This document shows positions 4,834 through 56,644 of a stretch of 64,000 nucleotides of DNA, piece by piece. The DNA is taken from contig CALOCL010000003.1 in the NCBI GenBank assembly GCA_942491855.1, forward strand, positions 39,497 to 103,496, written 5' to 3'. The position numbers were made by a program, and so were the translations under genes. Under the pieces are notes generated by a model that saw nothing but the letters and a program-made list of their open reading frames with translations, did no database searches and was not told where the DNA came from. Each line of letters opens with the position of its first letter. Position 1 is the first letter of the stretch. This stretch comes from an uncultured Bacteroidales bacterium (GTDB lineage Bacteria; Bacteroidota; Bacteroidia; Bacteroidales; GCA-2711565).

Positions 4834-4851
4834 TAATTAAAAAACAGAAAA

Positions 4852-6075: not shown

Positions 6076-6119
6076 TTACAATATCGCATAATTTATCAAG
6101 TTTAAATCTAATAATTATT

Positions 6120-8048: not shown

Positions 8049-8057
8049 ACTAAAAAA

Positions 8058-8226: not shown

Positions 8227-8379
8227 TCACTACAAATATGGATTTTCAATCTGCAATCTATTGCCTAGCTTGCAATTGATTTTTCAGCTAGATAAATACT
8301 GTAACAAGAGCGTTTTAAGCTCGTTTATATTATTAGTATTTAAAAAGAATTTTTGATTTTAAATTTTAACACCTTAATA

Positions 8380-35024: not shown

Positions 35025-35055
35025 TATGGTTTAGTTCATTATTAAACCAAAAGTG

Positions 35056-37479: not shown

Positions 37480-37493
37480 TTAAATCTCCAGTA

Positions 37494-39893
37494 ATGATCA
37501 TAAATTACCTAAAAACAGCATTAAGAAACATTGCAAGAAATAAATTATTTACATTTTTAAATATTTTAGGGCTCTCACTAGGTCTGGCGACAGCTATCCT
37601 TATTCTATTTTGGGTACAGGATGAATTGAGTTACGATAAGTATAACAAAAACGCAAAAAACATTTATCGAATCACCAGTGATTATCAATTACCAGGAGAA
37701 AAATTTAAAGGGACTACAACATGTCCGCCAATGGCAGGAACATTAATTAATGATTACCCTGAAATACTAAATGCATGCAGATTCAACAGAAACATTGGTG
37801 GAAATTTAAGCGTTGGAGATAAGAAATTTAGCATTTCTAATCTTGCCTACGTCGATTCAACATTCTTTGATTTGTTCAGTGTTGCTCTATTAAAAGGAGA
37901 TAAAAAAAACCTTTTAAACCATCCAAACTATCTGGTATTGAGCGAAACAACTGCAAAACAACTATTTGGAGAAAAGGATCCCATCGGAAAATTAGTCACA
38001 GTGGGAAATGAATCTTTTTTGGTCAAAGGTATTTATGCTGATATTCCGGAAAATTCTCATTTCCATTTCAATATTTTGTTTTCAATCTCAAGCTTGAAAG
38101 CTAGTTTGAGTCCGGTTTGGTTGGACAATAATTATTACACTTATATTCTTTTGTATCCTGAAGCGGATCCTGAAAAGCTAGAACAACAAGTACATGAAAC
38201 GGTCATGAAACATATTGGTCCGGCTCTTGAAAATGCAACCGGACAAACGATGGATAAATTAATTGGAGATGGTTCCATTTCATTTGAGCTTCAAAAGTTA
38301 ACCGACATTCATTTACATTCCCATTTGATGGGAGAACTAGATGTAAATGGGAATCTTTCAAATGTTTATATCTTTTCTTTTATCGCTCTTTTTATTCTGA
38401 TTATAGCTTGTATCAATTTCATGAATATGTCTACAGCTCGATCCGAAAGTCGAAGCAAAGAAGTTGGTATTCGCAAAGTTTCAGGCGCAGCAAGAGGTCA
38501 AATTATTTTTCAATTTCTACTCGAATCATTCATTATTACGTTGCTATCCTACTTTTTCGCAATGATTTTAATTGAGATTTATCTACCCAGCTTCAATACG
38601 CTCTCAGGAAAAAACATTAACATCAACTATTTCGAGCCTTTTACTCTTTTCATCCTCTTCGGCATAATTATTTCTACCAGTTTCATATCAGGGAGCTACC
38701 CTGCATTCTACCTATCTTCATTTCAACCTATCGAAACTATGAAAGGAGCTTTAAAGGGCGGCAAATCGAGCGGAAGACTCAGAAATGTATTAGTTATTAT
38801 TCAATTTTTCACAACAATTATTCTAATCAGTAGTAGCATTTTTGTATACAATCAATTAAAATTTATTCAAACAAAAGAACTGGGATTTGACAAGGAGCAA
38901 CTAATATGTATTGGTAATTTAAATGCCTTAGATGATAAAGCCAATAATTTTAAACAAGAACTACTAAACCATCCCGAAGTAATTAGTGCAACCATTTCTT
39001 CCTTCTTGCCGGTACCTTCCGCCGGGTATCATGACGCTGTTTATCCGGATGGTGATAAAAATAATATGGTGGGGTTGTATCAATGGTTTGTGGATGTGAA
39101 TTATATTGAAACCCTTAGGATGAAGATTAAAACGGGAAGAAACTTCTTAGAAGAATCCGGAACTGATTTGCAAGCGGTACTGATTAATGAGAAGGCACTA
39201 AAGCAATTTGGATGGGAAACATTTGAAGGACATTTTATTACCAGAAAATCAAGCCAAGAGGCAACTAAATACAAAGTTATTGGTGTGCTGGAAAATTTCC
39301 ATTTCGAATCCTTGAAAAAAACAATTTCACCAATGATTATGCAATTAGGAGAAGGTGGGTATTATTTAACAATGAGGTACAATGCCACCAACGCCCAAGA
39401 CATCATTCAATTATCGGAGAAAAAGTGGAAAGAATTTGCACCGAATGATCCATTTGAATATTCTTTTGTTGATGATCGCTTCAATAATATGTATTCTCAG
39501 GAACAACAAGTTGGTAAAATCATGAAAACATTCACCTTTCTGGCAATCATAGTTGCATCTCTTGGTTTGTTTGGATTGGCCGCATTTATTGCCGAAAAAA
39601 GAACCAAAGAAATTGGAATCAGAAAAGTGAACGGAGCCAGTTTGATAAATATTTTTATGTTATTCACTAAAGATATCACCATACTAATTCTAATTGCTTT
39701 TATTCTGGCCGTGCCATTAACATGGTACATCATGAATCAATGGTTAAATAATTTCACCTATCGGGTCGATATAAACTGGCTGGTATTTTTGAGCGCAGGA
39801 TTACTTTCTTTTGTGATTGCAATGCTAACTATTTCGTACCAAGCTTTCATGGCCTCTTCGCGAAATCCAATTGAATCCTTAAAATACGAGTAG
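37494..39893 (+). CDS. FtsX/MacB-like ABC transporter permease, tandem paralogue of 35056..37479
   Basis: 799 aa. The N-terminal 45 aa are nearly identical to the upstream paralogue (NYLKTALRNIARNKLFTFLNILGLSLGLATAILILFWVQDELSYD). The start is 14 nt after the upstream stop. Confidence 0.9.
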   Translation: MIINYLKTALRNIARNKLFTFLNILGLSLGLATAILILFWVQDELSYDKYNKNAKNIYRITSDYQLPGEKFKGTTTCPPMAGTLINDYPEILNACRFNRNIGGNLSVGDKKFSISNLAYVDSTFFDLFSVALLKGDKKNLLNHPNYLVLSETTAKQLFGEKDPIGKLVTVGNESFLVKGIYADIPENSHFHFNILFSISSLKASLSPVWLDNNYYTYILLYPEADPEKLEQQVHETVMKHIGPALENATGQTMDKLIGDGSISFELQKLTDIHLHSHLMGELDVNGNLSNVYIFSFIALFILIIACINFMNMSTARSESRSKEVGIRKVSGAARGQIIFQFLLESFIITLLSYFFAMILIEIYLPSFNTLSGKNININYFEPFTLFILFGIIISTSFISGSYPAFYLSSFQPIETMKGALKGGKSSGRLRNVLVIIQFFTTIILISSSIFVYNQLKFIQTKELGFDKEQLICIGNLNALDDKANNFKQELLNHPEVISATISSFLPVPSAGYHDAVYPDGDKNNMVGLYQWFVDVNYIETLRMKIKTGRNFLEESGTDLQAVLINEKALKQFGWETFEGHFITRKSSQEATKYKVIGVLENFHFESLKKTISPMIMQLGEGGYYLTMRYNATNAQDIIQLSEKKWKEFAPNDPFEYSFVDDRFNNMYSQEQQVGKIMKTFTFLAIIVASLGLFGLAAFIAEKRTKEIGIRKVNGASLINIFMLFTKDITILILIAFILAVPLTWYIMNQWLNNFTYRVDINWLVFLSAGLLSFVIAMLTISYQAFMASSRNPIESLKYE

Positions 39894-41186: not shown

Positions 41187-41963
41187 TTATTCAAGGTAGA
41201 GATTTAAAAATTTAATCACCTGTTCCCAATATTTATCATTTCCTTGGTGTGCTTCCCAAAGAGCGCGAGAGCCATGGTATCCATCGAAATCGGGAACATA
41301 ACTCATCTTGTATTTTGAGGGGATAGACTCGTAAATTCCTTTCCAGTTATTTTCCTCATTTTTTGATGAAGTAATAAATACAGGCATCTGCAGGTTTGCA
41401 GCAAATTCAGGAATGCTTTTATCTTCGAAGGTGAAATATTCACCTGGTGAAAATGCCAAAACACCATCAAGCAACTCCTGATTTTTCTCAGCCAATACAA
41501 AACTGAGTGCAGCAGAATAAGAACTACCCCATATTAAAACTGTTTTTGGGTCGAATTTTTCATAAACATAATTAAGCGCTGCCTGTAAGTCGGGGTATGC
41601 ATCGGGAAAGTTCATCGCTAAGCCTTTATCTTTTGCTCTCGCTGCGGTTTCATTTTTTATCTCTCTAACCAAATTTCCGGAACGTTGATCAATTGCCAGA
41701 CAGTTAAATCCCAATCTATTCAACTTGGGTGCAATTTCTCGGTAAGATCCTCTACTCCACCCTGCCTGATGAAAAAGAAGAATAAAACGAGATAATGCTT
41801 CATCCGTTAAATATAAATCTGCCGTAATCTTTAACTCATCCAGCGAAGGGAATTCAATGGTTTGTCCTTTAAAATCGGTTGTTTGAGCATTGACCGAATT
41901 TGGCAATATCAATATTGTGATCAAGATCAATTTAAAAAACCGGATGGCATATCTTTCTTTCAT
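41187..41963 (-). CDS. Alpha/beta hydrolase, exported
   Basis: 258 aa with signal peptide, nucleophile elbow IWGSSYSAA and a C-terminal GYHGS. Confidence 0.75.
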   Translation of the reverse strand: MKERYAIRFFKLILITILILPNSVNAQTTDFKGQTIEFPSLDELKITADLYLTDEALSRFILLFHQAGWSRGSYREIAPKLNRLGFNCLAIDQRSGNLVREIKNETAARAKDKGLAMNFPDAYPDLQAALNYVYEKFDPKTVLIWGSSYSAALSFVLAEKNQELLDGVLAFSPGEYFTFEDKSIPEFAANLQMPVFITSSKNEENNWKGIYESIPSKYKMSYVPDFDGYHGSRALWEAHQGNDKYWEQVIKFLNLYLE

Positions 41964-41985
41964 AATTTCAATTTTTATAAAAATA

Positions 41986-42780
41986 CTATTTATTTTTTAT
42001 AATCAATCCAACCAGTTCTTTCAGAAGCTTGGCAGCTAAAGCGGCAGTGATTCCAGCTGGGTCACGATCAGGGTTTAATTCAACAATATCTGCACCAACA
42101 ATTGGATTTTCAATTTGATGCAAAATATCAATTACCTGTCGTGTAGTTAATCCACCGGGTTCGTAATGCGAAACACCAGGTGCAAATGCAGGGTCAAATC
42201 CGTCTAAATCAATGGAAATGTAGAGAGGTAAATCAAATTTCAATGGCTTCATTTTCTCAACATCCTTCATCATGATAATTTCTATCCCAAATTTCTCGGC
42301 TTGCGCCTCAAGGTGAGGTGACATATTTCTGATTCCAACCGAAACCATTCTGCCAATCATGCCAGACTCCATTATCCGAGCAAAAGGGCAGGCATGTGAA
42401 AATCGATCTCCTTCAAACTCATCATAAATATCAGGATGGGCGTCAAAATGTAAGACATCAATTTTTGTGTAAACGGTTTTTAATGCCTGTGTAATTGGAT
42501 ATGTCAAAGAATGGTCTCCTCCCAGAAATATGCTTGGGTTTTTTAAGTTAATTTTTTGTACTATCTGAGAGGCGATTTGGTGGTAATCTACGATTTTCAG
42601 GTCACCATGATCAAGAGTTTTAAAATCCTTTAAAATATCAAATCCTGTTTCGCTCATAAAATTTGAAGAACCATCATGCAAACTTTTTCTTATTTGCTGA
42701 GGCGCTTTTGCTGTTCCTTTTAAATATGATGATTTATCATCAAATGGCAATCCAAGAATGTTTAATTGATTTTTTTTCAT
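41986..42780 (-). CDS. Ureohydrolase family enzyme (agmatinase-like)
   Basis: Mn-binding motifs GGDHSLTYP, HFDAHPD and SIDLDGFDPAFAPGVSHYEPGG. The probable start is MKKNQL at 42780. Confidence 0.85.
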   Translation of the reverse strand: MKKNQLNILGLPFDDKSSYLKGTAKAPQQIRKSLHDGSSNFMSETGFDILKDFKTLDHGDLKIVDYHQIASQIVQKINLKNPSIFLGGDHSLTYPITQALKTVYTKIDVLHFDAHPDIYDEFEGDRFSHACPFARIMESGMIGRMVSVGIRNMSPHLEAQAEKFGIEIIMMKDVEKMKPLKFDLPLYISIDLDGFDPAFAPGVSHYEPGGLTTRQVIDILHQIENPIVGADIVELNPDRDPAGITAALAAKLLKELVGLIIKNK

Positions 42781-42908
42781 CGAATAAAATATTGATCTGT
42801 ACAAAGATAATTTTTCATACTAACAGTTCTAAAATATTTAATAAAAGCACGGGATTCAAGCCCAAATTCTTGCTTTAAATTCCTTACATTTATAAAAAAA
42901 ACTTATCG

Positions 42909-44150
42909 ATGAGCCTCCGCAGCAGATTTAAATCAATTGGACCCGGCATCCTTGTAACAGCAGCCTTTATCGGCCCAGGTACAATTACTACTTGTACCTT
43001 AACCGGAGCAAGTTTCGGCTATGCCTTGTTATGGGGATTACTATTCTCCGTCTTTGCTACCATCATTCTACAAGAAATGACTGCTCGATTGGGTATTATT
43101 GGGCGCCTTGGACTCGGTGAAGCCTTGCGTCAACAATTCAAAAATCCAATTACAAAAGCTGTTGCTGTAATTTTAGTACTATCAGCTATCTTTATTGGAA
43201 ATGCCGCTTACGAGACAGGCAACATTTTAGGTGCATCCTTGGGCTTAGAAGAGATGACAAAATATTCTGGCATCGAATTCAATAATGGTTTCGTTTTAAA
43301 GATATGGGGCCCCATCATCGGAATTCTTGCATTTCTTCTTTTAATCCTTGGAAATTATAAATACCTCGAACGTGCGCTGATTGCACTTGTGCTCATCATG
43401 AGTGTTTCGTTCATTGCAACCATGATTATTATTGGACCTGATTTACCACAGCTACTTAAAGGTGTTTTCATTCCTAAATTGCCTCCAGGAAGTACATTGA
43501 TGCTAATTGGTTTAATTGGCACCACTGTTGTTCCCTATAATTTATTCCTTCATGCCTCTACCGTGCAGGAAAAGTGGAAAGACAAAAAAGACTTAAAGGT
43601 TGCACGTGTTGATTTAGCACTTTCAGTGATTTTAGGCGGTATGATTTCAATGTCCATTGTGATCACTTCAGCTGTGGCATTTTTTGGCACCAACACCGAA
43701 ATCCGAGGTGCTGCAGACCTTGCTACACAGTTAAAGCCATTTTTAGGCGACTGGGCAGGCATTTTCATGTCCATCGGCTTATTCGCCGCTGGAATCTCAT
43801 CAGCTATCACTGCACCCCTTGCTGCAGCCTATGCGACCTCTGGAATTTTAGGATGGAAAACTGAATTAAAATCGAAACGATTTAAAGCAGTTTGGATGAC
43901 CATCTTGTCCATAGGCATTGTTTTCTCAGCCATGGGCTTCAGTCCGATAAAAGCCATCATGTTTGCGCAGGTTACGAATGGAATTTTACTGCCAGTTATT
44001 GCCATCTACCTTTTAATCATCATGAACAGCAAAAAGATATTGGGCGAGAACTCAAATCGGTTATTTCAAAATATTCTGGGCTTGTTAATTGTATTAATCA
44101 TGGTCGTTCTTGGAGGCAAAAGTATTCTTCTGGCATTCGGTTTATTATAA
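42909..44150 (+). CDS. NRAMP-family membrane transporter (YcsG-like, associated with 5-oxoprolinase genes)
   Basis: 413 aa, ~11 TM, N-terminal IGPGILVTAAFIGPGTITT. Sits immediately upstream of pxpA, as ycsG does in Bacillus. Confidence 0.8.
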   Translation: MSLRSRFKSIGPGILVTAAFIGPGTITTCTLTGASFGYALLWGLLFSVFATIILQEMTARLGIIGRLGLGEALRQQFKNPITKAVAVILVLSAIFIGNAAYETGNILGASLGLEEMTKYSGIEFNNGFVLKIWGPIIGILAFLLLILGNYKYLERALIALVLIMSVSFIATMIIIGPDLPQLLKGVFIPKLPPGSTLMLIGLIGTTVVPYNLFLHASTVQEKWKDKKDLKVARVDLALSVILGGMISMSIVITSAVAFFGTNTEIRGAADLATQLKPFLGDWAGIFMSIGLFAAGISSAITAPLAAAYATSGILGWKTELKSKRFKAVWMTILSIGIVFSAMGFSPIKAIMFAQVTNGILLPVIAIYLLIIMNSKKILGENSNRLFQNILGLLIVLIMVVLGGKSILLAFGLL

Positions 44151-44160
44151 ATTTTAAAGG

Positions 44161-44928
44161 ATGAAGAAAGTAGATATTAATTCAGATTTAGGAGAAAGTT
44201 TCGGCAATTATAAAATTGGAAACGATGCAGAAGTGATGAAGTATATCAGCTCTGCAAACATTGCATGTGGATTTCATGCAGGTGATCCCTTAGTTATTCA
44301 AAACACCATTAAACTGGCACTTGAAAACCATGTTGCCATTGGTGCTCATCCGGGTTATCCCGATCTGATGGGATTTGGACGACGATCGATGAATTTAAGC
44401 CCCAAAGAAATAAAAGCCTACATGCTCTACCAGGTTGGAGCACTTAAGGCAATGACAGAAGCCATGGGTGGGAAATTACAACATGTAAAAGCTCATGGAG
44501 CCTTGTACAATGACGCATCAGCCAACAAATCTATTTCAACTGCTATTGCAGAGGCAATTTATTTAATTGATCCTGAGCTCATTTTTATGGGATTGGCAAA
44601 ATCAGAAATGCTGGTGGTTGCTAAAAAACTTGGTCTAAAAACTGCAAGCGAAGTATTTGCTGATCGAGCTTATATCAAATCCGGCACCTTGGTTTCACGA
44701 GCGATTCCCGGAGCTGTGATTCACGATTCAAACATATGTAACAAGCGGGTTTTAAAAATGATTAACGAAGGGAGCGTAACTGGAATTGATGGAGTTGAGA
44801 TACAAATTGATGCCGAAACCATTTGCATTCACGGCGATAATCCTTCAGCCATTGAAATGGCTAAATCTTTAAGAGAATATTTAGAGAAAAATAAAATAAC
44901 GATTCAAGCATTAAGTAATGACAAGTAG
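44161..44928 (+). CDS. pxpA: 5-oxoprolinase subunit A (LamB/YcsF family)
   Basis: INSDLGESFG, ACGFHAGDP and VKAHGALYN motifs. Confidence 0.85.
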   Translation: MKKVDINSDLGESFGNYKIGNDAEVMKYISSANIACGFHAGDPLVIQNTIKLALENHVAIGAHPGYPDLMGFGRRSMNLSPKEIKAYMLYQVGALKAMTEAMGGKLQHVKAHGALYNDASANKSISTAIAEAIYLIDPELIFMGLAKSEMLVVAKKLGLKTASEVFADRAYIKSGTLVSRAIPGAVIHDSNICNKRVLKMINEGSVTGIDGVEIQIDAETICIHGDNPSAIEMAKSLREYLEKNKITIQALSNDK

Positions 44929-45613
44929 CAGCGTAAAAATCATCCTATCCGGAGATTCCGGAATAATCGTAAGATTTGGAAATTCCATAACCGAAGAAAT
45001 CAACAAAAAAGTTCACAACCTTCAATTAATGCTTGAAAGCATGAAGACCGAAGGAATTACAGAAATGGTGCCGGCCTACACCGACTTGCTAATTTTATAC
45101 AATCCTTTGGTTAATTCGTACAAGAATATGATCCAGGCAATTGAGAAAGCGATTGATACCCCAAGCCCATCCAATACTCAAACTCAAAGATTGATTGAAA
45201 TTCCGACCTGTTATGAAGGTGAATATGGTGAAGACCTGAAAGAGGTTTCAGAAAATACAGGACTTTCAGTAGCAGAAATAATTAAAATTCATTCTTCAAC
45301 TCAATACCTGGTTTACATGCTTGGCTTTACTCCTGGTTTTAGTTATTTAGGTGGAATGGATGAAAGAATTGCATGCACCAGAAAAAAAATCCCACGACAG
45401 GTTATCCCTGCAGGCTCAGTTGGAATAGCAGACAAACAAACCGGAATTTACCCCATTGAAAGTCCGGGAGGTTGGCAATTAATCGGAAGAACTCCCCTAA
45501 ATCTTTTCGATCCTGATCGGGAAGAAGTATTTCTTTGTAATGCAGGAGATCGATTACAATTTGTACCAATCACAAAAAAAGAATTTGAATTACTAAAAAA
45601 AGATCAGAATTAG
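44918..45613 (+). CDS. pxpB: 5-oxoprolinase subunit B (KipI / allophanate hydrolase subunit 1-like)
   Basis: 231 aa. YMLGFTPGFSYLGG, and IPAGSVGIADKQTGIYPIESPGGWQLIGRTP typical of the cyclophilin-like KipI fold. Overlaps pxpA by 11 nt. Confidence 0.85.
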   Translation: MTSSSVKIILSGDSGIIVRFGNSITEEINKKVHNLQLMLESMKTEGITEMVPAYTDLLILYNPLVNSYKNMIQAIEKAIDTPSPSNTQTQRLIEIPTCYEGEYGEDLKEVSENTGLSVAEIIKIHSSTQYLVYMLGFTPGFSYLGGMDERIACTRKKIPRQVIPAGSVGIADKQTGIYPIESPGGWQLIGRTPLNLFDPDREEVFLCNAGDRLQFVPITKKEFELLKKDQN

Positions 45614-45615
45614 TC

Positions 45616-46548
45616 ATGGGAAAGCTTAAAATCATCAACAGTGGAATGCTAACCAGCATTCAAGATTTTGGAAGATATGGATATCAAAAATTCGGGATGC
45701 CAATTTCTGGTGCAATGGATACACATTCGATGCAACTGGCTAATTGGTTGGTTGGAAATGATAGAAATGAAGCGTGTTTTGAAATTACTTACCTCGGGCC
45801 GGAAATTGAATTTCTGACCGACACCACCATTGCCATCAGTGGAGCCATGATGCATGCAACGGTCAACGATGAGCCTGTTAGAATGAATGCAACAATTCAG
45901 ATTTTTGAAGGAGATCGATTAATTATGGGGGCGGTAAAAAAAGGGATGAGAGCTTACTTATCCATTGCCGGCGGTATTTCAGTGACAGAAGTGATGGGAA
46001 GCAAGTCGACTTATTTAAGAGGGAAAATTGGAGGATTTAAAGGACGTAAAATAGAAAATGGCGATGAAATTGAAATTGGTAAAAATGCTGAGCTACCATA
46101 CAAAGAAGTCCCGGGACAACTTTTATTTATCTATCCTTCCGTTCAAACCATTCGGATTATTCGAGGAACAGAAATTGATCGTTTTACAGAAAAAGGCTTA
46201 AAAACTTTTTTGAATTCTAAATACACCGTTAGTAATGAAAACGACAGGATGGGATATCGCTTATCCGGACCTGCAATTGAGCATAAAAATGGAGCTGATA
46301 TTATTTCTTCAGGAATTGTAAATGGAAGCATACAGGTACCAGGTCATGGCGAGCCCATTATCATGATGGCTGATCATCAAACTGTTGGTGGATATACCAA
46401 AATTGCGAATGTGATAACGGTTGATCTTCCTATTCTGGCACAAATGAAAGCCGGTGATAAAATAAAATTTAAAGAAATTAAACTTGAAGAAGCCCAGGAT
46501 TTACTGGACAAGCAAAATCAAAATATCGAAAAATTATATCAACTATAA
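45616..46548 (+). CDS. pxpC: 5-oxoprolinase subunit C (KipA / allophanate hydrolase subunit 2-like)
   Basis: 310 aa with TSIQDFGRYGYQKFGMPISGAMD, MGYRLSG and ADHQTVGGYTKIA. Confidence 0.85.
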   Translation: MGKLKIINSGMLTSIQDFGRYGYQKFGMPISGAMDTHSMQLANWLVGNDRNEACFEITYLGPEIEFLTDTTIAISGAMMHATVNDEPVRMNATIQIFEGDRLIMGAVKKGMRAYLSIAGGISVTEVMGSKSTYLRGKIGGFKGRKIENGDEIEIGKNAELPYKEVPGQLLFIYPSVQTIRIIRGTEIDRFTEKGLKTFLNSKYTVSNENDRMGYRLSGPAIEHKNGADIISSGIVNGSIQVPGHGEPIIMMADHQTVGGYTKIANVITVDLPILAQMKAGDKIKFKEIKLEEAQDLLDKQNQNIEKLYQL

Positions 46549-46551
46549 AAT

Positions 46552-47673
46552 ATGATTTCACAAAAAGCTAAATCACTGATCTCAGGAATTTTCATTCTAA
46601 CTTTAATAATTCAAACCAATCATTTACTGGCAGAAGAAAATGAAGTTAAACTTGAAATCCATCTAACACAAGAAGTGGCTTCGGGCTTTGTACACCTGGC
46701 ACTGAATTGTGTACAAAAAGAGTATCCCAATAAAACAGGTCACGTAATGAATGATGTTACTGATGTTTTAACTCCATCACAAATGCATCCGGCATTTTAC
46801 GGTTGCTACGACTGGCACTCATCAGTACATGGGCACTGGATGCTGGTCCGTATTCTTAAGCTATTCCCAGAAATTCCTGAAGCTGCCGAAATCCGTCAAT
46901 CTTTAAACAAAAATCTTAGTGCAAGAAATATTTTAAAAGAAGTTGAATATTTTAATCAGGAAGGTCGTAAATCTTTTGAGCGAACCTACGGCTGGGCCTG
47001 GTTATTAAAACTTGCCGAAGAATTGCATGGATGGGAAGACATAGATGGACGAAACTGGGAAAAGAATCTGTTACCACTTACCAAACGGATCATAAAAAGT
47101 TATACCGACTTTCTACCAAATCAAACTTACCCTGTTCGTACCGGAGTGCATCCTAATTCTGCTTTTGGGATTTCTTTTGCACTGGATTACGCTATGAAAG
47201 TTAAAAACGAAAGCTTTGCTGATTTTTTAATCGAAAGAAGTAAGACTTACTACCTGAAAGACAAAAACGGACCAGCTATCTGGGAACCGGGAGGTGAAGA
47301 TTTTCTTTCTCCTGTTTTAGTGGAAGCCGACTTAATGTATCGGGTGTTAAACCCAAAAGATTTTACCCAATGGTTTCATGATTTTTTACCAGGATTTAAA
47401 ACTCAGGAATATAAAAATCTTACCTCGCCCGCCATCGTATCTGATCGAAGTGATCCCAAAGGCGTACACCTTGATGGTTTAAATTTAAGTCGTGCCTGGT
47501 GCATGCTCGGAATATCAAAAGCTTTACCTGACGGAGATCCGGTTAAGGAAATTTTATTAAAAGCGGCAAATGTACATGCAAACAGTGCTTTGTTGAATGT
47601 AGCTACCGGAAGTTACGCAGGGGAGCATTGGCTCGCCTCCTATGCAGTTTATATGCTTTCGCTGAAACAATAA
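46552..47673 (+). CDS. DUF2891 domain protein, exported
   Basis: 373 aa with signal peptide and HPAFYGCYDWHSSVHGHW. The start is 3 nt after the pxpC stop. Confidence 0.7.
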   Translation: MISQKAKSLISGIFILTLIIQTNHLLAEENEVKLEIHLTQEVASGFVHLALNCVQKEYPNKTGHVMNDVTDVLTPSQMHPAFYGCYDWHSSVHGHWMLVRILKLFPEIPEAAEIRQSLNKNLSARNILKEVEYFNQEGRKSFERTYGWAWLLKLAEELHGWEDIDGRNWEKNLLPLTKRIIKSYTDFLPNQTYPVRTGVHPNSAFGISFALDYAMKVKNESFADFLIERSKTYYLKDKNGPAIWEPGGEDFLSPVLVEADLMYRVLNPKDFTQWFHDFLPGFKTQEYKNLTSPAIVSDRSDPKGVHLDGLNLSRAWCMLGISKALPDGDPVKEILLKAANVHANSALLNVATGSYAGEHWLASYAVYMLSLKQ

Positions 47674-47697
47674 ATGTGAATCAATCAGACTTTTAAA

Positions 47698-47732
47698 CCT
47701 CCGAGTGTCTTAAATACTCGGAGGTTTTTTTT
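47698..47732 (+). terminator. Rho-independent terminator
   Basis: CCTCCGAGT-gtcttaaat-ACTCGGAGG followed by T8. Confidence 0.85.
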
Positions 47733-47752
47733 ATCTTTCGCAATTAATAATC

Positions 47753-47834
47753 TCATTTCGCCCGAAGGGAGAAATTCTAAATAATTTTGACTTTTTATGG
47801 CGATTTCTCAGTCGTTTCACTCCTTCGAAATGAC
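47753..47834. repeat. Pair of inverted short palindromic units (REP-like) between convergent genes
   Basis: Unit 1: TCATTTCGCCCGAAGGGAGAAAT (47753-47775). Unit 2: GATTTCTCAGTCGTTTCACTCCTTCGAAATGAC (47802-47834). They share the TCATTTCG and GAGAAAT ends in opposite orientation. Confidence 0.4.
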
Positions 47835-47847
47835 AAATAAAAGTTGA

Positions 47848-48594
47848 CTACCAACTCTTAAGTTTCGCAGCATCAACCTTTGAAATTAAAGCCCTGGCCA
47901 AAACGAGGGTTGTATCGATTAAAGGGATACCATTAAAATATTTATCAGGATAAGCCAATGGCAATTCGGTACAACCTAAAACAATCACCTGAGCTCCTTT
48001 ATCCATTAAAGAATGAAAAGCTCTCTTTAAAATATCCATTGACTCGGGACTGATTTTTTCAGGATCGGATTTAATGCCATAAACCGGATGATAAATAGAC
48101 TGATGAACTTCCTCAACTTCAGTTTCTGAAACGTTTATCACTTCTAAACCAAATTTTTCAATTCGGTTATACTGTTTGGTTTTATAGGTACCCGATGTTC
48201 CAAGTATGCCAATTTTTTTAAACTCGGGGAATTGAGCCAAAATAAATTTTCCAACTTCTTCAATCAAGTGGAGTAGCTCAATCCGGGCATTCTCTTTTTC
48301 TAACTGTTGCTTAACCACTCCAAAAATTTCAGGGGCATGGGCCGAATTACATGGTAATCCGGCTACAGTAGCACCTAAATCATCTAACTTCAACAAAATT
48401 TTTGAAATTGCGTAAGCCGGATTTTCATCGATAATTCCTAAAATATATTCCGTTCTATCCCCAATAAATTCAGGCGTTGAAAACAAAATCTGAGAAATGT
48501 GATCCTGATCTTTACCGGCAATGGTTTGGTTCACTATTTTTTTTGAGAGATAGATTCCGGCTATGGGACCCATACCTCCAACAATTCCAATCAT
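47848..48594 (-). CDS. Aspartate/glutamate racemase family protein
   Basis: 248 aa with IGIVGGMGP and the two catalytic Cys contexts GLPCNSAH and LGCTELP. Confidence 0.85.
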   Translation of the reverse strand: MIGIVGGMGPIAGIYLSKKIVNQTIAGKDQDHISQILFSTPEFIGDRTEYILGIIDENPAYAISKILLKLDDLGATVAGLPCNSAHAPEIFGVVKQQLEKENARIELLHLIEEVGKFILAQFPEFKKIGILGTSGTYKTKQYNRIEKFGLEVINVSETEVEEVHQSIYHPVYGIKSDPEKISPESMDILKRAFHSLMDKGAQVIVLGCTELPLAYPDKYFNGIPLIDTTLVLARALISKVDAAKLKSW

Positions 48595-48820
48595 TCCTTT
48601 TTTAATTTTTACTTATCATTTGCTGCAATAATATTATTAGGTAAAACTTTGATCTTTGGCATTCGTCGATAATTTGATCGTTCGAAATTGAACCATTGAA
48701 AATATTCCTAAATTAGTACTGAACTTTTTCATTTTAAGTTAGATATTAAATAATATATGAATTAAAATTATCAATTTTATTGCAAATATTAACCAAACCA
48801 TGAATTTTAAACTTATTAGT

Positions 48821-50353
48821 ATGAACAAATCGAAAATAACTTTTATTTTGATTATTTTAAGCACATTTTTGTTATCATGTGTAAGTGATCAAAAATCCAA
48901 AAAATATAAAATTGGAGTTGCAACTTTCTCTCATGAAACCTGTACTTTTTGTCCAACACCCACCGGAATTGAGGAATTTGAATACTACGGTGCACCGTTA
49001 AAAGGTGATGAAGTACTGCAAGCTGGCAATTACATTGAAGGTTTCGTTAACCAATCAAGTGAATTTGAACACCTGGAACTAGTTGGATTGACTTCTCCAA
49101 GAGATGCTAAAGGAGGTTCTTCGGGTAGTTGGATCACGCAAGAGGCATTCGATAAATATGTCGGCTTAATGGCTAAAGATTTGGAAGAACAGAGTCCATT
49201 CGATGGTGTTTATCTTTCGTTACACGGCGCTATGGCAGTAACAGGTATTCCAAAACCTGAGGCTGAAATAGTTCGACGATTAAGGAAAGTAGTTGGCAAT
49301 ATCCCCATTTTTGTTACCCTCGATCTTCATGCCAACGAAGATCATGAATTATGTGATGCAGCAGATGCTGTTTTTATCATTAAACGATATCCTCACTACG
49401 ATGCCTTTCTACAAGGTGAACGTGCTGCCCGTTTGATGAATCTCACATTGAATGGAAAGTATAAACCAACCATGGCCACCAGAAAACCAGGAATTATTAC
49501 CCCAAGTGTCTATCAGGGAACCGGTGTTTCTCCTGCTATGGAAATTATGGAAAAGGCCAGAAGGATTGAGGAAAGATATCCCGGCGTTTATGTTTCTGTA
49601 GCTTTTGGCTTTGCTTATGCAGATGTGCCGGATGCTGGGGCAACCATCATGGTCGTCACGAACGACAATCAGAAATGGGCTGATGAAATTGCCGATGACA
49701 TGAATGATTTTATTTGGCGACAACGATTGGCCTTTGCGGGCAAAAAATTACCTAAAACTGAAGAGGGTGTTAAATTGAGCATTGCTGCTGCAAAGGCTGG
49801 CAAAAAGCCAGTTGTTATTGCTGATCACGCTGACAGAACCGGGAACTCAACCCATATCCTGGAGCAATTGATGAAACAAGGTGGAGAAAATTTCTGTATT
49901 GCAACCATTTCTGATGTCAGGGCAATTGATAAATTAGAAGCTAATGCCAATAAAGCAGGAGACATCGTTGAGTTGGAGATTGGAGGATATGAAGACGAAT
50001 ATGCAGGAAATCCTGTTAAGATTAAAGGTGAGCTTGAGTTTTACAACAATGTCGGCCGATTTAACAAAAAGGTTGCAGTACTTAAGTTTGGGAAGAACAA
50101 CCGTGTTATCATTACTCCAGTTTTACATCAAATCACAACACTTGGGATTTTTCAAGAATTAGGTTTAGAACCTAAAAAAATGTATATCATTTCGTTAAAA
50201 TCAAGAGTGCATTTCCGCAGAGGATTTTATGAATCAGGCTTTGCCGGATCAATTTTTGAGATTGATGCACCCGGATTGGGGCCAGCTGACTTAACTACTA
50301 TTGAATACAAAAACATACCCAAGGATATTTATCCTGTTTACAAAAGGGATTAG
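48821..50353 (+). CDS. M81 family metallopeptidase (MlrC-like), lipoprotein
   Basis: Lipobox FLLSC. N-terminal IGVATFSHETCTF and HGAMAV, LDLHAN motifs typical of MlrC N-/C-domain proteins. Confidence 0.8.
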   Translation: MNKSKITFILIILSTFLLSCVSDQKSKKYKIGVATFSHETCTFCPTPTGIEEFEYYGAPLKGDEVLQAGNYIEGFVNQSSEFEHLELVGLTSPRDAKGGSSGSWITQEAFDKYVGLMAKDLEEQSPFDGVYLSLHGAMAVTGIPKPEAEIVRRLRKVVGNIPIFVTLDLHANEDHELCDAADAVFIIKRYPHYDAFLQGERAARLMNLTLNGKYKPTMATRKPGIITPSVYQGTGVSPAMEIMEKARRIEERYPGVYVSVAFGFAYADVPDAGATIMVVTNDNQKWADEIADDMNDFIWRQRLAFAGKKLPKTEEGVKLSIAAAKAGKKPVVIADHADRTGNSTHILEQLMKQGGENFCIATISDVRAIDKLEANANKAGDIVELEIGGYEDEYAGNPVKIKGELEFYNNVGRFNKKVAVLKFGKNNRVIITPVLHQITTLGIFQELGLEPKKMYIISLKSRVHFRRGFYESGFAGSIFEIDAPGLGPADLTTIEYKNIPKDIYPVYKRD

Positions 50354-50386
50354 TAGCAAACGAACTAATCAATAAAATGATAAGTG

Positions 50387-50421
50387 AAAAAGGGCGACAA
50401 CTTCTAAGATGTCGCCCTTTT
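50387..50421. terminator. Bidirectional stem-loop terminator between convergent genes
   Basis: AAGGGCGAC-N12-GTCGCCCTT, flanked by an A-run upstream and a T-run downstream. Confidence 0.7.
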
Positions 50422-50427
50422 CATTGT

Positions 50428-51540
50428 TTATTCTTTGATAATTTCAAGAACTTCTTTAATTGGAATGGCTTTTACAGTATGTCCTCTATCTCCAGATGTT
50501 GTGGTTGCCATAAATAAAGAATTGTAAACGGCTTCTTGAGTGGCTTCCTCTACTGCCTGGAATAAAGCTGTCATGGCACCATTAACAAGCAATGGAGGCA
50601 CCTCAAATGTTTTCTTTTCACTTTGATAAGGGATGCGATAGGCCGTTGAAAAGGCAATGGCAAAATCGCCGGATGAATTAGACATTACGTTAGTGGTTCT
50701 TCCCATTCCGATAAAAGCACGCCTTGCCAATCTTTTTAAATTCCGAGGCGATAATGGTGCGTCTGTTGCAATCACAATCATGCAAGATCCATCTTCTGTC
50801 TTCTTTATTTCATTCGCTTTAATCTTAGTTGTAACAGGTACGCCATTTAAGTATAGTTCTCTTCCAAAATTAGATTGAAGTAAAACTCCAACAGTATATT
50901 TTTTCCCATCAATAGGAACCGTCACTCTTGAAGCCGAACCTATTCCTCCTTTAAAACCTAAAGCTGTAGTACCTGTTCCTGCACCTACACAACCTTCATC
51001 AAATACACCAGTTTTGGCATTTTCAATAGCCTTAACAATATGTTCACCTTTGATATGTTGACCTCGGATGTCATTCAAAAATCCATCATTTGTTTCACCT
51101 ACCACAGCATTAACCGATCTCACATCTTCATTTCCTTTTTGGTTAAGAGTATATTTAACGAGGGCTTCAACTCCTGTTCCAACGCTTAAGGTATTCGTTA
51201 GAATAATTGGAGTCTCAATGTTACCAAGCTCCTCAACTTGAGTAAATCCCGCCAATTTCCCAAAGGCATTAAAGCAGAAAATTCCGGCAGGTACCTTACC
51301 CTGAAATATATTACCATCATGAGGTAAAATTGCGGTAACACCTGTTCTAATATTAGTCTCTTGCTTCAGTGTTAAATGCCCGACCTTGACACCTTCAACA
51401 TCGGTAATCATATTTAAAGACCCTTTTTGGAGTGTTCCAACGTCAATACCAAAATCGGAAACTCTGCCCCTCTTTTCTTGAGCAAATAAAGCAATATTAA
51501 TACAAGTAACTAAAATAAATAATGTGGTGATTTTTTTCAT
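50428..51540 (-). CDS. P1 family peptidase (DmpA/BapA-like aminopeptidase), exported
   Basis: Signal peptide from MKKITTLFILV. GVTAILPHDGN, and GAGTGTTALGFKGGIGSAS containing the self-processing/nucleophile region. Confidence 0.8.
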   Translation of the reverse strand: MKKITTLFILVTCINIALFAQEKRGRVSDFGIDVGTLQKGSLNMITDVEGVKVGHLTLKQETNIRTGVTAILPHDGNIFQGKVPAGIFCFNAFGKLAGFTQVEELGNIETPIILTNTLSVGTGVEALVKYTLNQKGNEDVRSVNAVVGETNDGFLNDIRGQHIKGEHIVKAIENAKTGVFDEGCVGAGTGTTALGFKGGIGSASRVTVPIDGKKYTVGVLLQSNFGRELYLNGVPVTTKIKANEIKKTEDGSCMIVIATDAPLSPRNLKRLARRAFIGMGRTTNVMSNSSGDFAIAFSTAYRIPYQSEKKTFEVPPLLVNGAMTALFQAVEEATQEAVYNSLFMATTTSGDRGHTVKAIPIKEVLEIIKE

Positions 51541-51765
51541 GATAACTCTTTTAAACATTCTTTCTTTTAACATAAAACCATACATATAAGCTAACTACAA
51601 TTTTGTTCGAAAGTTAAGAAATAAATTCAAGGATTTATGATATATATCATTGGTTAATCAATTATCGGCTTATCTTATTATGTATATATTTGTATATCTA
51701 ATTATGTTGATGAAAAAACCACTAAATAATTGAATCAAACTCAAAATCAAACAAAACTAAATCTT

Positions 51766-53034
51766 ATGAAACGATCACAATTTTTAAGAAGCAAATTAAT
51801 AATGCTAACACTCGTACTTGTACTTGCGAGTAGCAATGCTTTTGCAACAGACGGCTATTTTGGAGCTGGTTATGGTACTAAAAGTAATGGAATGGCTGGC
51901 GCAGGAATTGCCTTGTATCAAAATTCACTTTTTGGAGCAAACAATCCTGGAGCCTTAGTATTTTTAGGAGATAAATATGGTATCAGTTTAGCCGCTTTTA
52001 ATCCCATACGTTCTTACGATATTACCGGAAATCCAAGTGGGTATCCTAATACATTCGGGCTAGCACCTGGTAAAGTAGAAAGTGAATCAAATTTATTTAT
52101 TATGCCTGCTTTAGCAGCTAACTGGATGTTAAATGATGAAAGTGCTTTTAATATTTCTTTATTCGGGAATGGCGGAATGAATACTGACTACCAAACGGCC
52201 ACTTTCCATGGGTCAAACCCAACCGGTGTAAACCTAATGCAAATGTTCGGAGCCTTTACCTATTCTCGCAAAATCAGTGAGAACTGGAGTGTTGGATTAT
52301 CTGCAATTGCAGCATGGCAATCGTTCGAAGCCCAAGGCTTAGAGGCATTTGGCGGATTTTCTATGGATGGAACAAAATTAACAAACAATGATGCCAGCAC
52401 AGCCTTTGGCTTTGGAGCAAAAATTGGTATTTACGGTATCATCACTGAAGATTTAACTTTTGGTGCCACTTACCAATCAAAAATTTCAATGGGTGAATTT
52501 GATGAGTACGCTGGATTATTTGCCGAAAATGGAGACTTTGATGTTCCTGCTACTTGGACAGCTGGTATCGCTTACGAATTCGTACCTGAAAAATTGGTTC
52601 TCGCTTTAGATTTCAAACAGATTTTTTATAGCAAAGTGGCATCCATTGCAAACCCAATGATGGGTGCAGCTGGCCCAAATTTCCCAATGGGAACTGCTAC
52701 CGGAGCAGGTTTTGGCTGGGAAGACATGACCATCATTAAAGCTGGTGTTGAATATTCAGTCAGTGATGATTGGACTTTAAGAGCCGGATATTCACACGGA
52801 ACTAACCCGGTACAAGAAAGTGAAGTGATGTTCAACATTTTAGCACCCGGAGTTATTGATGACCACATTACTTTTGGTTTTTCAAAGAAAATGGGGAAAA
52901 ACGAATTAATTTTTGCCGTTGTGCATGCGTTAGAAAATACAGTTACAGGTCCTAACCCAATGGAAGCACCTGATCAGCAAACTATTGGTTTAAATATGAG
53001 TCAATGGATTTTTGAAATTGGATTTACATTCTAA
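51766..53034 (+). CDS. FadL/TodX family outer-membrane channel for hydrophobic compounds
   Basis: Signal peptide ending NAFA, the TDGYFGAGYGTKSNGMAGAGIA opening typical of the family, and a terminal aromatic (GFTF). Confidence 0.8.
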   Translation: MKRSQFLRSKLIMLTLVLVLASSNAFATDGYFGAGYGTKSNGMAGAGIALYQNSLFGANNPGALVFLGDKYGISLAAFNPIRSYDITGNPSGYPNTFGLAPGKVESESNLFIMPALAANWMLNDESAFNISLFGNGGMNTDYQTATFHGSNPTGVNLMQMFGAFTYSRKISENWSVGLSAIAAWQSFEAQGLEAFGGFSMDGTKLTNNDASTAFGFGAKIGIYGIITEDLTFGATYQSKISMGEFDEYAGLFAENGDFDVPATWTAGIAYEFVPEKLVLALDFKQIFYSKVASIANPMMGAAGPNFPMGTATGAGFGWEDMTIIKAGVEYSVSDDWTLRAGYSHGTNPVQESEVMFNILAPGVIDDHITFGFSKKMGKNELIFAVVHALENTVTGPNPMEAPDQQTIGLNMSQWIFEIGFTF

Positions 53035-53055
53035 ATAAAGCATCTAATAATTTAA

Positions 53056-53083
53056 AAGGCTGTTCAGTTGAACAGCCTTTTTT
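53056..53083 (+). terminator. Rho-independent terminator
   Basis: AAGGCTGTT-cagttg-AACAGCCTT followed by a T-run. Confidence 0.85.
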
Positions 53084-53166
53084 CGTTTTACTAATCCTTA
53101 TTCAAAACTTGCCACAACTAGCCAGGAATATTTTTTAGTATATTTGCCCGAACTAAAAAAATACAG

Positions 53167-53958
53167 ATGTTCGATTTCCATAAAGACAAAGCCAGGTATT
53201 TTGATATGCAGTATCGCAATTCTAAGGAATACATAATTCCATTTGTTGAACCGTATCTTGATTTGAGCAAGAATCTTAATATTTTAGAAATCGGTTGTGC
53301 GGAGGCAGGTGTTCTTAAGGCTTTTCTAGAAACTGGACAACATTGTACTGGCATTGAACTGAATGCTGGAAGAGTTTTAGATGCGAAGACCTTTTTAAAA
53401 AGAGAAATCGAGTCAGGAAAGGCAGAAATTATCAACAAAAATGTTTTTGAGATTGATACGGAAGATTTTGAATTGAAATTCGATTTAGTCATTTTAAAGG
53501 ATGTAATTGAACACTTCCCAAATCAAGAGAAATTTATTCAAGAGCTAAGTAGATTTCTTAATCCTGATGGACATATATTTTTTGGTTTCCCTCCTTGGCA
53601 AATGCCTTTTGGCGGACACCAACAAATATGTAAAAATCGTTTTGCAAGTCTATTTCCGTACTACCACCTTTTTCCTAAATTTTTATATCGAATCGCACTA
53701 AAGATATTTGGAGAGAGAGAAGATACTATTAACGAACTTTTCGAAATAAAGGACTGTGGGATTTCAATAGAAAGATTTGAGAAAATTGTAAAATCCAAAG
53801 ATTTTCATGTTGTGAATAAAACTCATTTTTTAATCAATCCAATTTATAAATACAAGTTTAATTTAAAAATCAGAAAACAAATTAAATTGATAAGTGCCAT
53901 CCCCTATCTGAGGAACTTCTTTACCACAGCTGTTTACTACCTCATTAAAAAAAATTAA
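53167..53958 (+). CDS. Class I SAM-dependent methyltransferase
   Basis: Motif I ILEIGCAEAG, an acidic post-I residue (GIELN) and DLVILKDVIEHF. Confidence 0.8.
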   Translation: MFDFHKDKARYFDMQYRNSKEYIIPFVEPYLDLSKNLNILEIGCAEAGVLKAFLETGQHCTGIELNAGRVLDAKTFLKREIESGKAEIINKNVFEIDTEDFELKFDLVILKDVIEHFPNQEKFIQELSRFLNPDGHIFFGFPPWQMPFGGHQQICKNRFASLFPYYHLFPKFLYRIALKIFGEREDTINELFEIKDCGISIERFEKIVKSKDFHVVNKTHFLINPIYKYKFNLKIRKQIKLISAIPYLRNFFTTAVYYLIKKN

Positions 53959-54707
53959 AAGTTTAAAACATTTTTTAACGCTTTGTATCCATTAGCACTT
54001 ACTTTTAGTTTTGAAGCATCTTTAAGAATAGCAACATAACAATCTTTCTCATAGCGCTCAATTTTATCCAATTCATTCACGTTTAAAATAAATGAGCGGT
54101 GAATTCGAACAAACTGCTCGGGATTCAAATGGGTCTCAAAAAACTTCATTGTTTTCTCTTTCAAATAGGTCCTTCCTTCCGAATGAATTTTTACGTAATC
54201 ATCATCAGATTGCAAATAACTTATTTTCTCGACAGGTAAAACCTTAATATGATTGCCTGACCTAATTGCAATTCTGTTTAATTCTTCGATTGAATCATCA
54301 ATTGTTTCGATAATTTTATGATTGGATTGCGAAGTAATTTCTGCATCTTCAGATTGCGAAATTATCTTATCAATTGCCTGGGCAAATCGATCTTTCGAAT
54401 AAGGTTTAAGTAAATAATCAATGGCATTTTGCTCAAACGCCTTGATGGCAAACTGATCAAAAGCTGTTGAAAAAACGATAAAAGGCTTTGAATCGATTAA
54501 CTCAAGAATCTCAAATCCTGTTAACTTTGGCATTTGGATATCCAAAAAAACAACATCAGGTTTTAACTGGTTAATTAACTGTACCCCCTCCAAACCATTA
54601 CTTCCTTCACCAATTATTTCGAATGCATTATATTCTGATAAATACTCACGAACCAACGATCGGGCTGGTTCTTCATCATCAATAATTAAACATTTAAATG
54701 TTTTCAT
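53955..54707 (-). CDS. LytTR family response regulator
   Basis: REC domain (CLIIDDEEPAR, DVVFLDIQMP) plus a C-terminal LytTR domain (FVRIHRSFILNVNELDKIE). Confidence 0.9.
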   Translation of the reverse strand: MKTFKCLIIDDEEPARSLVREYLSEYNAFEIIGEGSNGLEGVQLINQLKPDVVFLDIQMPKLTGFEILELIDSKPFIVFSTAFDQFAIKAFEQNAIDYLLKPYSKDRFAQAIDKIISQSEDAEITSQSNHKIIETIDDSIEELNRIAIRSGNHIKVLPVEKISYLQSDDDYVKIHSEGRTYLKEKTMKFFETHLNPEQFVRIHRSFILNVNELDKIERYEKDCYVAILKDASKLKVSANGYKALKNVLNF

Positions 54708-55764: not shown

Positions 55765-55770
55765 AGCTGA

Positions 55771-56496: not shown

Positions 56497-56644
56497 TGAA
56501 TGAATTTTTAAAGTTAGTAATTTTAGATGAAGCAAAGATATATCGCAAGTACTTTTCTGAAAAGCATGAATCGGTAAATTGCCGAATAAGTACGGTGTAT
56601 GCTTTTTTTATATATTTACTTTAAAGATTTAAACCCACTTGACA

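Follow-up and report, generated by a model that had tools for sequence, protein, structure and literature searches.

The 64,000-nucleotide stretch of DNA analysed here (the window) comes from an uncultured Bacteroidales bacterium (GenBank assembly GCA_942491855.1, contig CALOCL010000003.1). Its positions 41187-53034 hold eleven genes, for an exported alpha/beta hydrolase, an agmatinase-type ureohydrolase, the four proteins of a 5-oxoproline operon (pxpTABC), a DUF2891 protein, an aspartate/glutamate (Asp/Glu) racemase, an M81/MlrC-like lipoprotein, an exported S58/P1 peptidase of the DmpA/BapA family and a FadL/TodX-type channel. A first-pass annotation had read all 12 kb as one functional neighbourhood acting on the building blocks of cyanobacterial and other non-ribosomal peptides. 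Comparison with related loci largely does not support that claim, and a smaller, modestly interesting conserved module remains: within the 12 kb, conserved gene linkage is confined to a cassette of the racemase, M81 and S58 genes. Its core, the S58 and racemase genes, is, by its recurrence in diverged genomes, a conserved gene pair in its own right, with a patchy distribution.

Gene calls were made from an open reading frame (ORF) listing and from Pfam and NCBIfam profile searches of 41187-53034, which returned all eleven genes at the coordinates and in the families first assigned to them (Table 1). The signal peptides, lipobox and catalytic motifs were likewise confirmed by profile searches and by reading of the N-termini: export signals are present in the alpha/beta hydrolase, DUF2891, S58 and FadL proteins and absent from the racemase and agmatinase, and the racemase carries PCNSAH at residue 81 and GCTELP at residue 207, as claimed. 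The true start of the M81 protein is probably Met8, at 48821. Because of the three hairpins and the strand changes we count six transcription units, where at least five had been proposed. A promoter scan of the region stayed at shuffle level (40 found versus 39.5 expected). The window has a G+C content of ~35%, and the closest relative among the M81 matches listed is the Bacteroidales metagenome-assembled genome (MAG) OY775914.1, with an M81 identity of 91%; an exact look-up of the window's own M81 protein gave no match.

Table 1 Genes and other features of the region (window positions)
Feature	Position	Strand	Evidence
Alpha/beta hydrolase	41187-41963	-	Weak Hydrolase_4/Abhydrolase_1 matches; signal peptide ending VNA|Q
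Agmatinase-type ureohydrolase, cytoplasmic; backbone gene	41986-42804	-	Arginase family 225 bits; TIGR01230
NRAMP-family PxpT/YcsG-like transporter	42909-44150	+	PF01566 321.6 bits
PxpA (LamB/YcsF)	44161-44928	+	PF03746 339 bits
PxpB (CT_C_D)	44918-45613	+	PF02682 259 bits; TIGR00370 224.9 versus cut-off 145.55
PxpC (CT_A_B)	45616-46548	+	PF02626 320 bits; TIGR00724 332 versus cut-off 230.2
DUF2891, signal-like N-terminus	46552-47673	+	PF11199 466 bits
Cassette span (racemase, beta-lactamase remnant, M81, S58)	47674-51635	.	blastn versus L122, 140 bp there
Hairpin terminator, 14-bp stem	47695-47727	.	Between convergent DUF2891 and racemase genes
Asp/Glu racemase, pyridoxal-phosphate-independent, aspartate-type, cytoplasmic	47848-48594	-	TIGR00035 126.2 bits versus 93.1
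PF00144 beta-lactamase-fold remnant	48640-48732	-	Signal-peptide codons, then stop codons
M81/MlrC-like predicted zinc metallopeptidase, lipoprotein	48800-50353	+	PF07364 232 bits and PF07171 80 bits; lipobox LLSC
Hairpin, 16-bp arms (inverted repeat)	50388-50421	.	Between convergent M81 and S58 genes
S58/P1 N-terminal nucleophile (Ntn) hydrolase (DmpA/BapA family), exported	50428-51585	-	PF03576 381 bits; signal peptide
FadL/TodX-type outer-membrane channel	51730-53034	+	Toluene_X 78 bits; signal peptide
Terminator hairpin 3' of FadL	53054-53081	+	Hairpin scan

Backbone genes and a separable cassette

The construction of the region can be read against L121 and L122 (homologous loci carry L numbers), from a Bacteroidota MAG whose DUF2891 protein is 74% identical. 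Both carry a hypothetical gene, DUF4251, an arginase-fold gene, NRAMP, PxpABC, DUF2891 and FadL. By blastn the window and L122 are colinear save for three indels: window 41195-42000, with the alpha/beta hydrolase, corresponds to 74 bp in L122; 47674-51635, with racemase, M81 and S58, corresponds to 140 bp, colinearity ending at 47673 and resuming at 51636; and 53084-53132 corresponds to 4.3 kb of sugar-nucleotide genes present only in L122. In L121 and L122 the FadL orthologue, 82% identical, directly follows DUF2891, so that FadL touches S58 in the window solely because the cassette sits between DUF2891 and FadL. The agmatinase gene is syntenic in L001, L002, L121 and L122. Agmatinase, pxpTABC, DUF2891, FadL and a methyltransferase form a lineage-specific backbone, and the alpha/beta hydrolase lies outside any conserved unit.

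The racemase, M81 and S58 genes in turn are found together in at least three other contexts, and some loci have this block with none of FadL, DUF2891 and Pxp. In L081/L092 it is flanked by a fatty-acid desaturase and, at its other end, by AhpC and Omp28; in L091 (M81 89%) by aminotransferases and DHDPS and, at the other end, by a 2-hydroxyacid dehydrogenase and a penicillin amidase; and in L096/L003 by PNPOx and CBAH (choloylglycine-hydrolase family) and, at the other end, by FadL. Integrase genes were not found at the cassette borders, and apart from the two terminator hairpins the only direct or inverted repeats flanking the cassette were short matches of the kind expected by chance.

One cassette member is a remnant in the window. 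Four relatives (L001, L002, L003 and L096) have a 355-356-aa exported PF00144 gene between racemase and M81, and the beta-lactamase-fold protein of the L001 type carries a signal peptide and an SxxK motif. At this place ~1035 bp are missing from the window by blastn against the relatives, leaving 31 codons (48732 to 48640, minus strand) that are 61.5% identical by tblastn over the first 26 residues and whose translation then runs into stops. Because the relatives keep an intact gene, the ancestral cassette would have comprised racemase, beta-lactamase-fold hydrolase, M81 and S58, with one member lost here. The same beta-lactamase-fold type is the most frequent partner of M81 in Bacteroidales. 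Its assignment to a known enzyme was tried and given up, the matches to NylB-like proteins, Lsa45 and R61 being only distant.

That the whole 12 kb dismantles non-ribosomal or cyanobacterial peptides, with parts for guanidino groups, pyroglutamate, D-acidic residues and beta- or D-amino N-termini and with FadL for the uptake of a hydrophobic tail, is very unlikely in the light of a scan anchored on M81. The scan covered one genome per species, used an alignment of 15 orthologues as query and kept the best 80 of at least 575 relatives with 10-kb flanks, against which 20 window proteins (35-58 kb) were searched by tblastn. Within 10 kb of M81, genes for S58, racemase, FadL, Pxp, DUF2891 and agmatinase are all missing from 76 of the 80 loci (E 1e-3, no coverage filter). 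The complete block is confined to L001 and L002 (M81 87-90%), where it is inherited synteny, given that the unrelated DUF4251, LytTR, histidine kinase and LiaF flanks are conserved too. L003 (M81 76%) retains racemase, M81, S58, FadL and the methyltransferase, and L004 (Marinilabiliaceae, M81 73%) has a racemase-S58 operon divergent from M81. L122 has the backbone and no cassette, L081 and L091 the cassette and no backbone; FadL, absent beside the cassette in both of the latter, is a backbone gene that is not tied to the cassette. The LiaF-like, His_kinase (PF06580) and LytTR genes form a three-gene module downstream of the region (53955-56535, minus strand) that is syntenic in L001, L002 and L096.

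The M81 protein itself is broadly distributed. Its homologues number thousands; the best 120 listed are 64-91% identical and spread across phyla, and the best 80 loci (59-90%) fall in at least seven phyla, with hosts in Bacteroidales, Marinilabiliaceae, Rikenellaceae, Acidobacteriota, Aminicenantes, Gemmatimonadota, Fidelibacterota and others, mostly uncultured MAGs. Between Bacteroidales and Acidobacteriota, Gemmatimonadota, Aminicenantes or Fidelibacterota, M81 identity is 59-71% (best tblastn segment), which suggests strong constraint or horizontal spread. Clustering of the ORFs within 6 kb of M81 in the 80 loci gave as neighbours M20 peptidases (15 loci), the 355-aa beta-lactamase-fold type a (11, including one Fidelibacterota genome), gamma-glutamyltranspeptidase (GGT; 9), DPP-IV/S9 (8), beta-lactamase-fold type b (7), Amidase (6) and PGA_cap (6), and at least one of M20, beta-lactamase-fold, GGT, S9, amidase and PGA_cap lies near M81 in 32 of the 52 loci of at least 12 kb. 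This company of unusual amide hydrolases speaks for the reading of the whole 12 kb as one peptide-degrading neighbourhood, as do the correctness of its gene families, the mlr-like pairing of M81 with a beta-lactamase-fold hydrolase in the ancestral cassette, and the loose clustering of L091 and L125 with penicillin amidase, M28 and Tricorn genes.

The backbone genes speak against it. Agmatinase, FadL and the alpha/beta hydrolase are ordinary, and pxpTABC is already known. The ureohydrolase passes the agmatinase (SpeB) equivalog TIGR01230, marginally (180.9 bits versus 174.3), and has the binuclear Mn motifs GGDHS, DAHPD and SIDLDGFDP; this points to an ordinary polyamine-pathway agmatinase. 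The pxpTABC type is a stand-alone operon that works on free 5-oxoproline by itself (PMC13274462). The window's pxpTABC is predicted to encode an ATP-dependent 5-oxoprolinase and a transporter, for uptake of 5-oxoproline and its opening to glutamate. Its NRAMP gene ends 10 bp before pxpA, and the protein scores far below the MntH subfamily cut-off (188.6 versus 430); whether the cargo of the NRAMP protein is 5-oxoproline or Mn2+ is debated (PMC13274462, PMC10448178). The FadL-type barrel is also weakly PorV/PorQ-like (type IX secretion; 46.6 bits versus a cut-off of 90).

The DUF2891 protein matches PDB entry 8IEU (Cj0554; also 8IEV) at E 8e-80. Its AlphaFold2 (AF2) model has a predicted local distance difference test score (pLDDT) of 85.6, and Foldseek returned Cj0554 together with weak (alpha/alpha)6 carbohydrate-enzyme and LanC-like matches (template modelling score, TM, <0.5). 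The modelled fold, solved as 8IEU, would be an (alpha/alpha)6-type toroid with no hint of peptidase activity, and nothing supports a peptide action of the DUF2891 protein, the alpha/beta hydrolase or FadL. Among the genomes compared, DUF2891 is linked to Pxp genes in Bacteroidales relatives only; no Pxp genes lie close to its orthologues in Latescibacteria, Blastocatellia, Fidelibacterota and a fourth lineage, and these four unlinked orthologues, with the weak fold matches, rule against a pyroglutamate-related enzyme. In the cj0552-cj0554 genes of C. jejuni, DUF2891 directly follows DUF969-DUF979, a proposed 5-oxoproline transporter (PMC12795558). DUF2891 is hence a neighbour of 5-oxoproline genes in two remote lineages, Bacteroidales and Campylobacter, a small lead for a family with an already solved structure.

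Peptidase genes abound throughout the window. Outside the region it has seven more of peptidase or amidase type, namely five adjacent ones at 722-9726 on the plus strand (S15, beta-lactamase-fold, S8, S15 and S41), an Amidase_3 gene at 24150 and another beta-lactamase-fold gene at 29226, and of the 47 window ORFs that reach 150 aa, about 10 belong to this type. In so peptidase-rich a genome a shared theme among neighbours is weak evidence, and the clustering is less striking than it appears because four of the genes are one known operon and three are one cassette. The general caution is that in such a genome a run of plausible annotations can be a mosaic of unrelated units. The run at 722-9726 is a second, denser peptidase cluster of the same window; its first S15 protein is an X-Pro dipeptidyl peptidase with TPR repeats and its S8 protein a subtilase. 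The window also contains two insertion-sequence transposase genes with rve integrase cores (10559-11560, plus strand; 27764-28597, minus strand), with stretches of lower G+C nearby (27.8% at 26-28 kb), and, upstream of the region, two tandem MacB/FtsX-type permease genes (35053-39893, plus strand).

The S58-racemase gene pair

Linkage within the cassette was followed from two further anchors: for S58 six homologue loci were looked up, and for the racemase metagenomes were scanned with an eight-sequence alignment, which yielded 30 loci. From the S58 side, a racemase partner is present in three of six loci. L081/L082 (S58 76%) shares the window's gene order, S58, M81, a small ORF and then racemase, between flanks unlike the window's: the fatty-acid desaturase at one end, and AhpC, Omp28 and purE at the other. 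L083 (S58 72%) has co-oriented S58 and racemase genes without M81. L084 (S58 69%) has beta-lactamase, M81, beta-lactamase and S58, then pdf and racemase; its M81, at 45% identity to that of the window, represents another M81 subfamily in the same company. The S58 gene is solitary in the other three homologues (60-65% identity), from Calditrichota, Melioribacteraceae and one more lineage.

From the racemase side, 13 of the 30 metagenome loci have S58 directly beside the racemase and on its strand, and adjacency persists down to 41-47% identity of the racemase and 52-56% of S58. When all racemase-bearing loci including the window are pooled, S58 adjoins the racemase in 20 of 35. S58 is the sole recurrent neighbour of the racemase, with M81 next (8 of the 35 loci); FadL is a neighbour in 4, all close relatives, and every other family in at most 4. 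Identity matrices separate at least five clades of pairs, between which S58 is 52-60% and the racemase 41-50% identical, and the S58 and racemase trees match each other across these clades. Pair-bearing loci range from 30 to 56% G+C, both gene orders occur, and the coding sequences overlap in L111 (8 bp) and L099 (14 bp). Names on identical proteins assign one pair clade to Balneolaceae and another to a 'Bacteroides sp.' MAG. A signal peptide is present in 21 of 21 S58 proteins and in none of the 18 racemases examined. M81 joins the pair in a Bacteroidales subclade. Gene-neighbourhood conservation was the check that the first-pass annotation had proposed: it does not hold for the 12-kb set, and it does hold for the pair, in at least five diverged clades.

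These data also bear on the explanation that no functional linkage exists and that every adjacency, that of S58, racemase and M81 included, is gene order inherited within related Bacteroidota. In its favour, both the full block and the S58-FadL adjacency are confined to loci whose flanks are syntenic as well. However, the S58-racemase adjacency recurs in at least five clades at 41-60% identity, in both gene orders, within differing flanks and in some cases with overlapping coding sequences, no other racemase neighbour is retained, and the trio is rearranged in L004 and associated with a different M81 subfamily in L084. We regard a complete lack of functional linkage as very improbable, and inherited order by itself is excluded as the explanation of the pair.

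One residue of S58 follows the linkage. R281, 14 residues after the nucleophile Ser267, is Arg in all 18 racemase-linked S58 proteins, and the position holds Q, G and G in the three S58 proteins without an adjacent racemase. Arg is also the majority state, found in 94 of 120 close S58 homologues. A part for R281 in specificity is possible at the low power afforded by three unlinked sequences with known context.

Proposed role of the cassette

By alignment, S58, M81 and the racemase appear to keep intact catalytic residues. The S58 protein matches PF03576 over positions 1-307 of the 307-position profile, its best solved relatives are PH0078 (2DRH, E 9e-94) and DmpA (1B65, E 8.5e-56), and its DGS267 aligns with RGS250 of DmpA and with KGS of PH0078, so that self-processing at the conserved Gly266|Ser267 site is predicted. 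Source names such as 'D-aminopeptidase' on S58 homologues are annotations only. The best solved match of the racemase is the aspartate racemase of P. horikoshii (PhAspR, 1JFL, E 8e-29). C82 (PCNSAH), C208 (GCTE), R47 and K175 are invariant in the alignment of eight racemases, and the last two align with R48 and K164 of PhAspR, residues with a role in binding the side-chain carboxylate. The enzyme likely acts on an acidic amino acid.

The observed gene families, catalytic residues and predicted localisation, together with the conserved S58-racemase and M81/beta-lactamase-fold pairs, are consistent with a salvage pathway. Outside the cytoplasm, oligopeptides would be trimmed by the exported S58 enzyme and the M81 lipoprotein, joined in the ancestral cassette by the exported beta-lactamase-fold serine hydrolase, the targets being peptides whose D- or beta-amino residues ordinary peptidases leave. 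An acidic D-amino acid released in this way, most likely D-Asp, would be imported by a transporter encoded elsewhere, and the cytoplasmic aspartate-type racemase would turn it into the L-form for assimilation. The cassette thus likely salvages peptides with D- or beta-amino N-termini or resistant internal bonds; its substrates and the direction of flux we infer from the sequences. Of the first-pass scheme, the idea of D-residues and D- or beta-amino N-termini stays plausible for these three genes, given the conserved pair and the unusual amide hydrolases often found beside M81, and the guanidino, pyroglutamate and hydrophobic-uptake parts are dropped.

Several observations weigh against a dedicated D-amino-acid salvage module. 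M81 occurs with S58 and racemase in just 4 of the 80 M81 loci. The unpaired S58 proteins of L085, L086 and L088, 61-66% identical to the window's, are nearer to it than the distant paired clades are, so the pairing is not obligatory and must have arisen or disappeared more than once. L- and beta-amino substrates are cleaved by S58 enzymes as well, hence the family alone does not fix D-specificity. Asp is not certain as the racemase substrate because the CuyB cysteate racemase model scores best, outscoring TIGR00035 although below its own cut-off (152.8 bits versus 190). No transporter is linked to the cassette, its four genes lie on alternating strands, which weakens the case for co-regulation, and with the loss of the beta-lactamase-fold member the module may be partly decayed in the window.

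The same enzymes could serve the cell envelope instead, the racemase making, for example, D-Asp and the exported S58, M81 and beta-lactamase-fold enzymes installing or trimming it in peptidoglycan or another polymer. In some Firmicutes the D-Asp of peptidoglycan cross-bridges comes from aspartate racemases, enzymes of the DmpA family are capable of aminolysis, and beta-lactamase-fold proteins include DD-peptidases. All three hydrolases are exported, and the L001 beta-lactamase-fold protein has a weak PDB match to the R61 DD-carboxypeptidase. However, the cassette has neither a ligase nor an export gene linked to it, the neighbours of M81 elsewhere are catabolic peptidases (M20, GGT, S9 and amidase), and the cassette is patchy in close relatives, absent from L122 and with the beta-lactamase gene deleted here, which fits an accessory catabolic trait better than envelope synthesis. 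A role in synthesis or remodelling of the envelope is hence unlikely.

Overall, we consider it rather probable that the region is an evolutionary mosaic of a backbone, a separable alpha/beta hydrolase and a separable cassette whose role is peptide salvage. More tentatively, the S58-racemase pair could be a widespread two-gene operon in Bacteroidota (Bacteroidales, Marinilabiliaceae and Balneolaceae), in some lineages fused with the M81/beta-lactamase-fold pair and specialised in recovering D-aspartyl N-termini, or related ones that are D- or iso-acidic, from the debris of aged protein or cell walls, with R281 perhaps recognising the acidic side chain; we think this possible and hold it with some doubt. 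A search of the accessible literature library found no paper describing an S58-racemase operon, none mentioning both DmpA and aspartate racemase, and none on an M81/S58 link. The pair offers a functional hypothesis for two large and barely characterised groups, the exported S58/P1 peptidases and M81 proteins outside MlrC. If the module does salvage D-amino-acid peptides, it bears on necromass recycling by its uncultured carriers.

Comparison with known systems

The backbone operon has the layout of known pxpTABC systems. These were characterised in C. glutamicum (PMC13274462), and the ycsF-ycsG-kipI-kipA genes of B. subtilis serve 5-oxoproline utilisation (PMC10448178); the 5-oxoprolinase function goes back to Niehaus 2017, as cited in PMC10448178. 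In the window, too, an NRAMP transporter gene precedes pxpA, pxpB and pxpC, all on one strand; the pxpABC genes overlap or lie 3 bp apart, and the three enzyme subunits score above the curated cut-offs. The window's operon differs in the DUF2891 gene 4 bp after pxpC and in having no adjoining GntR-type PxpR regulator.

Among single enzymes, the window's S58 resembles DmpA of O. anthropi, BapA and PH0078 in its full-length family match and in the kept Gly|Ser nucleophile. It differs from them in being exported and, in many lineages, paired with a racemase. The racemase keeps both catalytic cysteines and the Arg and Lys of the P. horikoshii aspartate racemase, although the match is distant and the window's enzyme scores higher on CuyB.

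The characterised enzymes of the mlr cluster for microcystin degradation include MlrC (M81) and MlrB (PMC4810221). The M81 protein of the window carries both family domains, the N-terminal DUF1485 and the C-terminal MlrC_C, and its E46, D175, H177 and H199, invariant in 15 orthologues, align with the Zn ligands E39, D167, H169 and H191 of MlrC (PMC9982164). The position of the MlrC general base E70 aligns poorly in the window's protein, the substrate-binding N41 aligns with C48, and the orthologues share an invariant HETCTFCP motif with two cysteines where MlrC has TETNSFSP. The match is distant (PDB 7YLQ, E 9e-26; NF041767, 95.1 bits versus a cut-off of 999). Relatives of the window pair M81 with an exported beta-lactamase-fold serine hydrolase, a fold family that includes MlrB, whereas the window itself keeps only the 31-codon remnant of such a partner; the intact L001 protein gave no match to the MlrB model at E <= 0.01. 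All ORFs of at least 100 aa in 41187-53034 were assigned to other families, save a 104-aa ORF antisense within M81, and none of them is a gene for MlrA (the ring-opening protease) or MlrD (a PTR2 transporter). Known microcystin degraders are not the source of the M81 orthologues of the window's type, which come from MAGs of Bacteroidales, Acidobacteriota, Aminicenantes and Gemmatimonadota. The distant MlrC match and the missing MlrA and MlrD types count against the proposed cyanobacterial or non-ribosomal peptide link, and the cassette resembles the MlrB/MlrC pairing in fold only.

A parallel in arrangement is murein-peptide recycling, in which a peptidase is paired with an epimerase, as in mpaA-ycjG of E. 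coli and ykfABCD of B. subtilis. The enzymes there are an enolase-superfamily dipeptide epimerase with M14/NlpC peptidases, here a two-cysteine racemase with S58 and M81, and no transporter is linked to the window's cassette. The organisation is alike, in that hydrolases releasing a D-amino-acid product are encoded beside a cytoplasmic enzyme that inverts its configuration.

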